Assembly: GCA_000004985.1 (NCBI GenBank)
Contig: GG739325.1
Reading direction: 5' to 3' (one strand)
Source: Naegleria gruberi
Taxonomy: Eukaryota
DNA: 1,820 nucleotides
The translations under genes and the position numbers were made by a program. Below are positions 641-1,820 of this stretch, piece after piece (position 1 is the stretch's first letter; each line of letters starts with the position of its first letter). The notes beneath the pieces were generated by a model. The model saw nothing but the letters and a program-made list of their open reading frames with translations, ran no database searches and had not been told where the DNA came from.

Positions 641-906
641 TCACTGGAGCAAAACGAGTTTTACCTTGTTTGCGCTCCGGTTGGATTTCAAGCGTTCGTT
701 GGTTTGCACCACCTACTGGCTATCCATCCGTTTGCCATTATGAACTCGATTTGAGCCTAAACGAATGAATCGTTTGGGTCTCTGAGGTATGGGGTTCCTC
801 TTGCGAGGGTTTCCCGCTTAATGCGGGTAATCAATATTGAAAAACAGCTGGCTCGTCCCGGGTCAAGGGTTTCCCCTCGGTCCAGGCTTCGCTGGCTGTG
901 GTGGTA

Positions 907-998
907 GGGCAGCCCAAAGGGCTGCGGTGGTAGGCTGGTAGGATCTGGGCAGCCCAAAAGGCTGCGGTTTGGCTGTGGGCAGCCCAAAAGGCTGCGGT
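907..998. repeat. Three tandem copies of a 22-nt element, GGGCAGCCCAAA(A/G)GGCTGCGGT, at 907-928, 947-968 and 977-998. Each contains a perfect short palindrome, GCAGCC(C)-AAA(A)-(G)GGCTGC, able to form a 6-7 bp GC-rich stem with a 3-5 nt loop.
   Basis: Seen directly in sequence. Copies 2 and 3 are identical, and copy 1 differs by one base (AAAG vs AAAA). The 18-nt and 8-nt inter-copy segments (929-946, 969-976) are short, irregular and unrelated. That rules out a CRISPR array and fits spacer sub-repeats. Confidence 0.85.
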
Positions 999-1209
999 TG
1001 AGGTATCTGAATCGGCCCCAGGGGCAGCGGTTGGGCCGGACGGTTGGGGGGCCCTCCTAGGCTCCCGGGTCACACACGCGGGAGGCTCCCTGGACAGCCC
1101 TGGGGTCAGGACTGGCAGCGGGTTGGACCGTTGGCCGTGGGAATGGCCGTGGGTTCTGCCGGCTGGCTGTAGGGTGCCTCGACCGCACGCGTGGCCTGGG
1201 TGGGCCAGA

Positions 1210-1281
1210 GGGCGCGTGGCTGGTGGTTGGCTGGCTGGTGGGCTGGTTGGCTGGTGGCGGGTCAGGTTTGGTTGGTTGGTT
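1210..1281. repeat. G/T-rich low-complexity tract, (TGGN)n-like with TGGC/TGGT units, then GGTTTGGTTGGTTGGTT. Positions 1210-1263 contain no A at all on the + strand.
   Basis: Seen directly in sequence: gtggctggtggttggctggctggtgggctggttggctggtggcgg followed by gtcaggtttggttggttggtt. It is a microsatellite-like simple repeat inside the GC-rich spacer. Confidence 0.6.
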
Positions 1282-1499
1282 AGCAGCGCCCCGCAGTTAC
1301 GCGCTGCCTTGGCTCCCAGCCGCAAGGGCTGGGGGTGCCCACCGACCTTCATCAGGCGGGGAGGGTTACCGACCCCCGGTGTGAACAGCAGGCCCCAACG
1401 GGTGGTTGACCCATTGGGGGCTCCGAAGGGCGTTGATACCCTCGATGAGGGTAATCCCTTAGGATCCTGCTGTCCGCAAGGTTAGGAACTGAAGTTCAG

Positions 1500-1820
1500 A
1501 CATTTCGGGGGGGTCGATGAACTCGAAAGTAGATATGGAAATAACTATAAATAAATAATCTTATAGTGTTTACAATAGAGGTGTCAAAAACGAAAAATCT
1601 ATTAATATATAAATCCACAAGATATAGTTTACTGATAAATATGACCATATTTTTGACTGAAATTTTTTAAAATTTTTGTCCTCACTTCATTTCTAGCCGA
1701 TTTTAAAATAACCAAATACTGTAAAACATTATATTCCTCTTGTAATATATGCATAAAATCGATTAAAAAAATTAACCCGTTTCTACCCAATATATTCTTT
1801 ATAATAGACCTGTATACTCA
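1500..1820. other. Very AT-rich, ORF-free non-coding DNA. It is a candidate intergenic (non-transcribed) spacer of the rDNA unit, or the flank of the rDNA array.
   Basis: Seen in sequence: composition drops abruptly from roughly two-thirds GC (800-1500) to roughly one-quarter GC. No ORF is reported in any frame. A/T homopolymer runs and stop codons are abundant on both strands. The functional assignment is inferred from the rDNA context. Confidence 0.4.

Follow-up and report, generated by a model that had tools for sequence, protein, structure and literature searches.

Three short GC-rich hairpin repeats upstream of the 18S ribosomal RNA (rRNA) gene of Naegleria gruberi look, on comparison with related sequences, like tandem copies of one small stem-loop under mild constraint, and a probability of about 0.55 is assigned here to a structural or factor-docking role for them at the RNA level, in the leader of the precursor rRNA (pre-rRNA). 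The stretch of DNA analysed, hereafter uniformly referred to as the window, comprises 1,820 nucleotides (nt) of contig GG739325.1 (GenBank assembly GCA_000004985.1) and is, as judged from its sequence, the 18S-adjoining part of the circular extrachromosomal rDNA element (CERE) of this species. The CERE holds all the rRNA genes of the Naegleria cell and occurs in about 4000 copies. Published reports on the element (PMC5805870, PMC7714845) treat everything outside the 18S-28S region as non-ribosomal sequence and contain neither the hairpin motif nor a comparison of lineages.

The 5' part of the 18S rRNA gene occupies positions 1-640 on the minus strand (Rfam RF01960, SSU_rRNA_eukarya, 331 bits, E 7e-98, model positions 1-556), with its 5' end at position 640 and the region upstream of it, in the rRNA sense, at 641-1820. 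A scan of the window against Rfam 15 at E-values up to 1 gave no match besides the small-subunit (SSU) rRNA, and the hairpins belong to no curated family. Relatives were obtained as public contigs (numbered here with the prefix L) sharing the product of a 97-amino-acid (aa) open reading frame (ORF) from within the 18S gene, and the set was widened by protein-cluster look-ups; exact look-up of the 173-aa and 120-aa ORFs of the window returned no identical record. The assignment to the N. gruberi CERE is based on the 99% identity of the 173-aa ORF to N. gruberi entries, on the unit size and a 371-bp repeat in the close relative L005, and on the internal transcribed spacer (ITS) primers in L001. 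In L005 a unit of 13,799 bp is repeated within a 23-kb contig and thus fits a circle or a tandem array of CERE size. In L001 the 18S-5.8S-28S unit is complete, its ITS1 measures about 33 nt, and both Naegleria/Vahlkampfiidae ITS primers, whose use is confirmed in the literature, match the contig exactly. The report on the CERE of N. gruberi strain EGB (PMC5805870) lists seven families of repeats, 34-371 bp in size with 371 bp as the largest, and mentions an ORF of unexplained nature upstream of 18S.

The hairpin repeats and their distribution in Naegleria

The pattern GGGCAGCCCAAARGGCTGCGGT matches exactly on the plus strand at 907-928, 947-968 and 977-998. No fourth match is present in the window at up to three mismatches, and none of 200 dinucleotide shuffles contained any match. 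The initial annotation, made from the letters of the window alone, had described three tandem hairpin-forming 22-nt sub-repeats in an rDNA spacer, and these are borne out together with their start-to-start periodicity, measured as 40 and 30 nt, and their location about 270-360 nt upstream of the 18S 5' end, measured as 267-358 nt from the Rfam 18S end at 640. The optional extra A that it had written into the repeat is in fact an A/G substitution at plus-strand position 13 (AAAG against AAAA); all the copies are 22 nt long and no indel separates them. A perfect palindrome had been attributed to every copy and is found in 907-928 only (7+7, 3-nt loop), the other two copies having arms of 6+6 and a 5-nt loop on the plus strand. 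Single copies fold at -11.2 to -13.8 kcal/mol on both strands, in agreement with the earlier proposal that the hairpin can form in either orientation.

In RNA of the rRNA sense, the distal and middle copies gain a seventh pair, U.G, which closes a UUU loop. The distal copy (977-998, minus strand; RNA ACCGCAGCCUUUUGGGCUGCCC), which would be the first to be transcribed, has a stem of six Watson-Crick pairs and the U.G pair at 979-985/989-995 and folds at -11.6 kcal/mol; it scores 35.1 bits (E 3.8e-7) with R1, a covariance model built from 16 hairpin copies. The middle copy (947-968, minus strand) is an exact match to the same 22-mer (30.1 bits; -11.6 kcal/mol), while the proximal copy (907-928, minus strand) forms a perfect 7-bp stem, GCAGCCC/GGGCUGC, with a UUU loop (34.6 bits; -13.3 kcal/mol). 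In the predicted ensemble of the whole 5' external transcribed spacer (ETS), the proximal copy has a local stem probability of 0.74, and adjacent copies compete by inter-copy pairing, with a probability of about 0.57 for the distal and middle copies. A degenerate relative of the hairpin, CCCAGCC-CUUGC-GGCUGGG, occurs in the distal ETS at 1310-1337 on the minus strand (repeat family D1, 83% identity) and is a weak match to R1 (14.4 bits, E 0.35); a second degenerate relative is located at 1013-1030 (78% identity).

Searches with R1 over 166 kb of relatives placed all the strong matches in ETS regions, on the rRNA-sense strand. No match was found elsewhere on the complete 13.8-kb unit of L005, including the part downstream of 28S, and in relatives that include the 28S 3' flank the matches are likewise confined to the ETS. 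When the first 640 nt of 18S were compared, the lineages were at least 98.6% identical to the window, except lineage D (about 95%); lineage H, represented by contig L034, which ends about 30 nt into 18S, was placed by the conserved 3' part of the ETS alone (85% identical to the window).

Lineage A, which is N. gruberi itself (the window, L003, L005-7, L036, L040-42), has three copies with a UUU loop and a spacing of 30 and 40 nt. The array has exactly three copies, identically spaced, in each of eight independent N. gruberi contigs, while an adjacent simple repeat varies, so that the check on copy number proposed in the initial annotation shows it to be fixed within the species. Lineage E (L022, L026, L027) also has three copies, all with a UUA loop, spaced 32 and 33 nt apart. 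Two copies are present in lineage G (L032; UUU(U) and UCUG loops) and in lineage F (L019 and six other loci), where both loops are UUCG and one copy has its closing pair changed from C-G to U-A. Lineage C (L018, L023) has four copies of the form GGCGGCCC-GYUU-GGGCUGCC (GCUU or GUUU), spaced 132-150 nt apart in longer units. In lineage I (L038, L039) a variant, GCaGCCC-GCAA-GGGCaGC, occupies the orthologous site, and related copies with a 60-nt period are found far upstream. The family has no member in lineage B (L001, L002, L020, L024), which carries CAGCC-type simple repeats in its place, in lineage H (L034), or in lineage D (L008, L009, L011, L013), which has its own 32-34-nt hairpin sub-repeats with CCC-GNRA-GGG cores. 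The proximal copy of the window, 907-928, is the positional orthologue of a hairpin at about -275 from 18S in lineages E, G, C and F, and of the related hairpin in lineage I. The comparison with related spacers, also suggested initially, therefore supports conservation in part: the stem is kept in six of the eight lineages of the N. gruberi complex, but the lineages carry anything from 0 to 4 copies, and B, H and D lack the motif.

Some other lineages have tandem hairpins of their own in the variable part of the ETS, such as those at L011 5164-5536 (lineage D, CCC-G(C/U)AA-GGG) and L038 6684-7265 (lineage I, GUAGCC-UCCG-GGCUGC-type, 60-nt period). Modules consisting of a hairpin and an A/C-rich linker seem to be a general feature of Naegleria leaders.

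Probable position of the repeats in the pre-rRNA leader

The region next to the 18S gene is a conserved, structured 3' core of the 5' ETS (641-897, minus strand), which is 84-99% identical across the lineages. For the 245 nt between the repeats and 18S, RNAalifold gives a consensus of 54 pairs over 12 lineages, eight of them with compensatory changes; constraint at the RNA level, as expected of an ETS, is thus evident in the core, and the evidence for it in the hairpins themselves is weak. The core includes the GNRA hairpins CGAGGG-GAAA-CCCUUG, with a G.U to A.C exchange, and CCUC-GCAA-GAGG. The 49 nt of the core that adjoin 18S do not vary and are present in every locus, even in the lineage whose 18S is only 95% identical. 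Beyond the core lies the putative variable part of the ETS (898-1517, minus strand), with 64-73% GC and C-rich on the RNA strand, of which only the 5'-most 130 nt or so can be aligned between lineages. The repeats lie 10-100 nt upstream of the structured core, at its junction with the hypervariable centre of the leader, and block identity to the nearest relative drops across them from 92-100% to about 60%. Within N. gruberi, length variation in the ETS is confined to the adjacent simple repeat, a TGGC/GGCTGGT-type sequence at 1211-1262 (CCAGCC-type on the RNA strand; Tandem Repeats Finder), which is 15 nt longer in L005-L007; ORF variants reflect its length, with 5 additional aa in P0001 and 9 in P0034.

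A common layout was observed in every relative, namely about 250 nt of moderate GC content next to 18S, a GC-rich, C-skewed block of 450-1400 nt, and then AT-rich DNA. In the window the GC content is 64-73% at about 850-1450 and 22% past about 1520. Two short boxes occur near this boundary on the minus strand: TCGACCC (1511-1517, -877 from 18S), at the AT-to-GC boundary itself, is the downstream half of a candidate promoter or initiator of RNA polymerase I (Pol I), and TTTGAC (1583-1588, -948 from 18S) is the upstream half. Each unit contains the pair a single time, on the rRNA-sense strand only, with a start-to-start spacing of 70-72 nt in six lineages, and the sequence between the boxes is not conserved. 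TCGACCC is conserved in lineages A, B, C, F, G (as TCAACCC) and I, while TTTGAC reads TTTTAT in one lineage; further conserved blocks are found downstream at about +40 (ACCTTGCGGACAGCA) and about +100. In relatives the pair is located at L005 9765-9842, L001 4164-4241, L032 6676-6752, L038 6387-6463 and L037 3225-3302 (the last on the reverse-complement strand of the locus). Since this spacing-constrained bipartite element heads a strand-asymmetric block that runs into 18S, it is probably a Pol I promoter, and we infer that the pre-rRNA starts near window position 1500-1530, which would give a 5' ETS of about 880 nt that includes the hairpin repeats.

The initial annotation had allowed the repeats to lie either within the 5' ETS or directly before the promoter. 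Comparative evidence taken with the candidate start favours the ETS over the upstream location: the repeats most probably lie within the 5' ETS, about 520-600 nt downstream of the candidate start, because the bipartite element is found 520-600 nt further upstream at the AT/GC boundary and because covarying helices lie just 3' of the repeats.

Neither lineage D nor lineage H showed the boxes. In lineage D, the AT/GC boundary is occupied by a separate conserved block of about 250 nt (L009 468-868; L011 4358-4758; L013 541-941; L008 3808-4208), near-invariant among four variants, lacking TTTGAC/TCGACCC and not confidently alignable to the other lineages; it may be a diverged promoter and ETS start. 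The contigs that bear the region either run far beyond the putative start into AT-rich DNA or break within repeats and, being assemblies of DNA, are uninformative about the start. Independent assemblies of lineage D break at nearly the same point in the GC-rich ETS (L015, L016 and L017 begin at -403/-405; also L010, L012 and L014), and this common break point is likely an assembly failure at the sub-repeats and no biological end.

Constraint on the stem and competing explanations

Among the 16 hairpin copies, 98.2% of the stem cells are paired, a fraction biased upward by the choice of seed copies for containing the motif, and three of the seven pairs never vary. One stem change, C-G to U-A, is compensatory. 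All eight of the one-sided changes give G.U or U.G in the rRNA-sense orientation and C.A mismatches on the opposite strand, although this wobble-only pattern amounts to about 3-4 independent events. Between lineages A and E, 5 of 42 stem columns differ as against 27 of 62 spacer columns, and between A and G none of 28 as against 24 of 44, counts which include end gaps and depend on the alignment. The pairing pattern is suggestive at most as a sign of RNA constraint.

Besides these limits on the counts, several other observations weigh against an RNA role. Covariation within the hairpin is not significant, with 125 of 500 column shuffles doing as well, because the stem is nearly invariant. Gene conversion among the copies could be the source of the stem conservation; the same loop is present in all the copies of a lineage (UUA in E, GYUU in C), which indicates homogenisation among them. 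Fold z-scores computed for both strands of the variable ETS in five lineages show a mixed picture and give no strand signal. The motif is absent from lineage B, whose 18S is 99.7% identical, and from H and D, so that the GCAGCCC/GGGCUGC element is not essential in that form. In the literature, neither a promoter nor an ETS nor a pre-rRNA 5' end was found to have been mapped for Naegleria; the published CERE papers define neither promoter nor ETS, and papers of 2026 describe the sequences governing CERE transcription as still unknown (PMC13398248, PMC13315211). Over the first 150 nt past the putative start, RNAalifold returned a covariation term of +1.06, which gives no support, the alignment of such diverged sequence being unreliable. 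A stable hairpin of some kind can be folded immediately 5' of the core in every lineage; this is expected for any GC-rich sequence and was given no weight.

The favoured reading, in which the hairpins act as RNA, can be set out as follows. A single ancestral stem-loop would have stood at about -275, at the 5' edge of the conserved ETS core, and would have been duplicated locally by slippage or unequal exchange, to an extent that differed between lineages. The copies would then have been homogenised within each lineage by concerted evolution, the stem being kept as RNA and the loop, spacer and copy number being free to drift. In the transcript, the copies may serve as fast-folding helices that punctuate a C-rich, G-poor and largely single-stranded ETS, forming a structural or factor-docking module that borders the region where the SSU processome is assembled. 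A narrower proposal, drawn by analogy, is that GCAGCCC-loop-GGGCUGC is a selected cis-element specific to the N. gruberi complex, which would act at the core edge as a docking site for an early processing factor or as a roadblock to 5'-to-3' exonucleolytic trimming like that suggested in connection with the plant A123B cluster, its copy number (0-4) tuning rRNA maturation; we consider it unlikely. If it were true, such an element would, together with the candidate promoter, provide a first functional map of the CERE regulatory region, which is needed for transgenic tools.

A real possibility, though a somewhat improbable one, is that the repeats are neutral: transcribed but functionless products of slippage or unequal exchange, whose stems persist because the lineages are young, by gene conversion and by self-correction of the arms through template switching. 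The turnover of the region is in keeping with this, since copy number (0-4) and spacing (30-150 nt) differ among lineages with at least 98.6% identical 18S, lineage B has the whole region replaced by its CAGCC-type simple repeats, and the loops shared within lineages E and C are a mark of concerted evolution. The lack of significant covariation in the hairpin fits as well, as does the presence of unrelated 32-34-nt hairpin sub-repeats at this place in the distant lineage D, from which the region seems generally prone to such repeats. However, the stems change several-fold less than the spacers between them, and their sequence is kept in six lineages in spite of the turnover of loops and spacers. 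Every one-sided change, moreover, is compatible with a G.U pair on the sense strand, and there is one compensatory change; in the eight N. gruberi contigs copy number shows no polymorphism whereas the adjacent simple repeat is polymorphic. The repeats thus do not behave as neutral micro- or minisatellites within the species and across the six lineages, yet their number does range from 0 to 4 between lineages. Unlikely, in our estimate, is a role at the DNA level, with the palindromes serving in double-stranded or cruciform state as targets of a Pol I enhancer factor or of a terminator or pause factor (Reb1/TTF-I type), as a replication fork barrier or as the origin of the CERE. In its favour, an inverted-repeat core is what a dimeric DNA-binding protein would be expected to recognise, the stem is conserved in sequence without covarying, and the single CERE origin lies within a 2.1-kb fragment of the non-ribosomal sequence. 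Against this stand the position of the repeats, downstream of the promoter-like element and in a uniform strand-asymmetric block that runs into the covarying ETS core, and the lack of any copy downstream of 28S or elsewhere on the complete unit; a half-site spacer of 3-5 nt between lineages would be tolerable for a hairpin loop but not for fixed half-site phasing, the stem variants give C.A mismatches on the opposite strand, and a consensus autonomously replicating sequence was looked for in the window and not found. The enhancer and terminator functions that the initial annotation had offered by analogy with other rDNA spacers gain no support: enhancer repeats lie upstream of the promoter, while the hairpins are 520-600 nt downstream of the candidate one, given the putative start, and the absence of the motif downstream of 28S and elsewhere on the 13.8-kb unit argues against a terminator. 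A better candidate for an enhancer-type spacer repeat is the AT-rich direct tandem repeat of 371 bp, present in two copies with 98.7% identity (L005 8756-9126 and 9129-9499), which lies just past window position 1820 (L005 9533); about 265 nt separate its end from the candidate promoter downstream.

It is very unlikely that the repeats are there to encode a real repeated peptide, AAFWAA, in an expressed 173-aa CERE protein. The ORF in question (831-1352, minus strand) is 99% identical to BAF74738.1 and AUH25139.1, both hypothetical proteins of N. gruberi, which from the accessions alone we take to belong to the NEG-M plasmid record AB298288 and the EGB record MG699123, respectively. Its deposition in both N. 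gruberi CERE records and its prediction by gene callers in several metagenomes are in favour of a coding function. However, it contains no Pfam domain and has relatives only among ORFs of N. gruberi-type CEREs; the ORF at the same site in L018, whose 18S is 99.4% identical, is only 29% identical with many gaps, and lineage B is without such an ORF. In addition, the frame runs in the rRNA sense and falls within what is probably a Pol I transcript, and long frames arise by chance in C-rich sequence. The two AAFWAA motifs are encoded by the distal and middle hairpin copies, as had been noticed initially, whereas the third copy reads SPLGCP in another frame since a spacing of 40 nt is not divisible by 3. 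The description of the ORF as spurious accordingly agrees with the comparison of relatives, and it is very probably an artefact of the C-rich ETS sequence and its repeats.

Relation to known leader elements and other features of the CERE

Helices of the 5' ETS in yeast and human scaffold the SSU processome through docking of UtpA, UtpB and the U3 small nucleolar ribonucleoprotein. This assembly is stepwise and co-transcriptional (PMC4803056). The Naegleria hairpins resemble these helices in being short helices of what is probably a Pol I leader, upstream of a core that adjoins 18S, which persist while the sequence evolves fast; unlike them, the Naegleria helix occurs in 0-4 near-identical tandem copies, and homology to a particular yeast helix is not claimed. 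Enhancers in Pol I spacers (Xenopus 60/81-bp, mouse 140-bp) lie upstream of the promoter, terminators of the Sal-box/Reb1 type lie downstream of 28S, and both act on DNA. The Naegleria repeats share with them the form of tandem sub-repeats in an rDNA spacer, but the candidate promoter precedes them, and no other part of the unit carries a copy. The A123B cluster in the 5' ETS of crucifers (Arabidopsis, Brassica) is a conserved group of short motifs linked to early ETS processing (PMC2910052). Like A123B, the hairpins are short repeated motifs, located probably within the 5' ETS and not in the intergenic spacer; they are conserved in related taxa and are candidates for a docking or boundary function in early processing or 5'-to-3' trimming. 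A cluster of the A123B type would be expected to bind a nucleolin/U3 snoRNP complex specifically and to be linked to a primary cleavage site. A123B is, in contrast, defined by sequence motifs and biochemical binding and lies near the transcription start in Arabidopsis, whereas the Naegleria elements are palindromic hairpins 270-360 nt from 18S; no sequence similarity between the two was seen. The ETS helices and A123B may thus be regarded as the nearest functional analogues of the hairpins, with membership in neither group being claimed.

The molecule and region are the same as those of the published N. gruberi EGB CERE, and the unexplained ORF reported upstream of its 18S is the 173-aa ORF. 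The sequence is already public, the hairpin repeat is not described among the CERE repeat families, and hairpin sub-repeats are ordinary in fast-evolving rDNA leaders. The CERE is under development as a vector and is considered as a drug target in N. fowleri. In the present analysis the non-ribosomal sequence adjoining 18S is resolved into three parts, namely a probable promoter, an ETS portion that varies and a core that is structured and conserved, and a short list of elements for mutation is provided. The by-products, namely the candidate bipartite promoter, the division of this sequence and the case for a spurious deposited ORF, are maybe more useful than the repeats, which themselves offer a small and clean example of concerted evolution, with the stem kept and the loops, spacers and copy number turning over at near-identical 18S.

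Elsewhere on the CERE, downstream of 28S, an intact 351-aa ORF with a His-Me finger endonuclease domain (PF05551) was observed at L005 3327-4382 and 17126-18181 and at L006 7861-8916.

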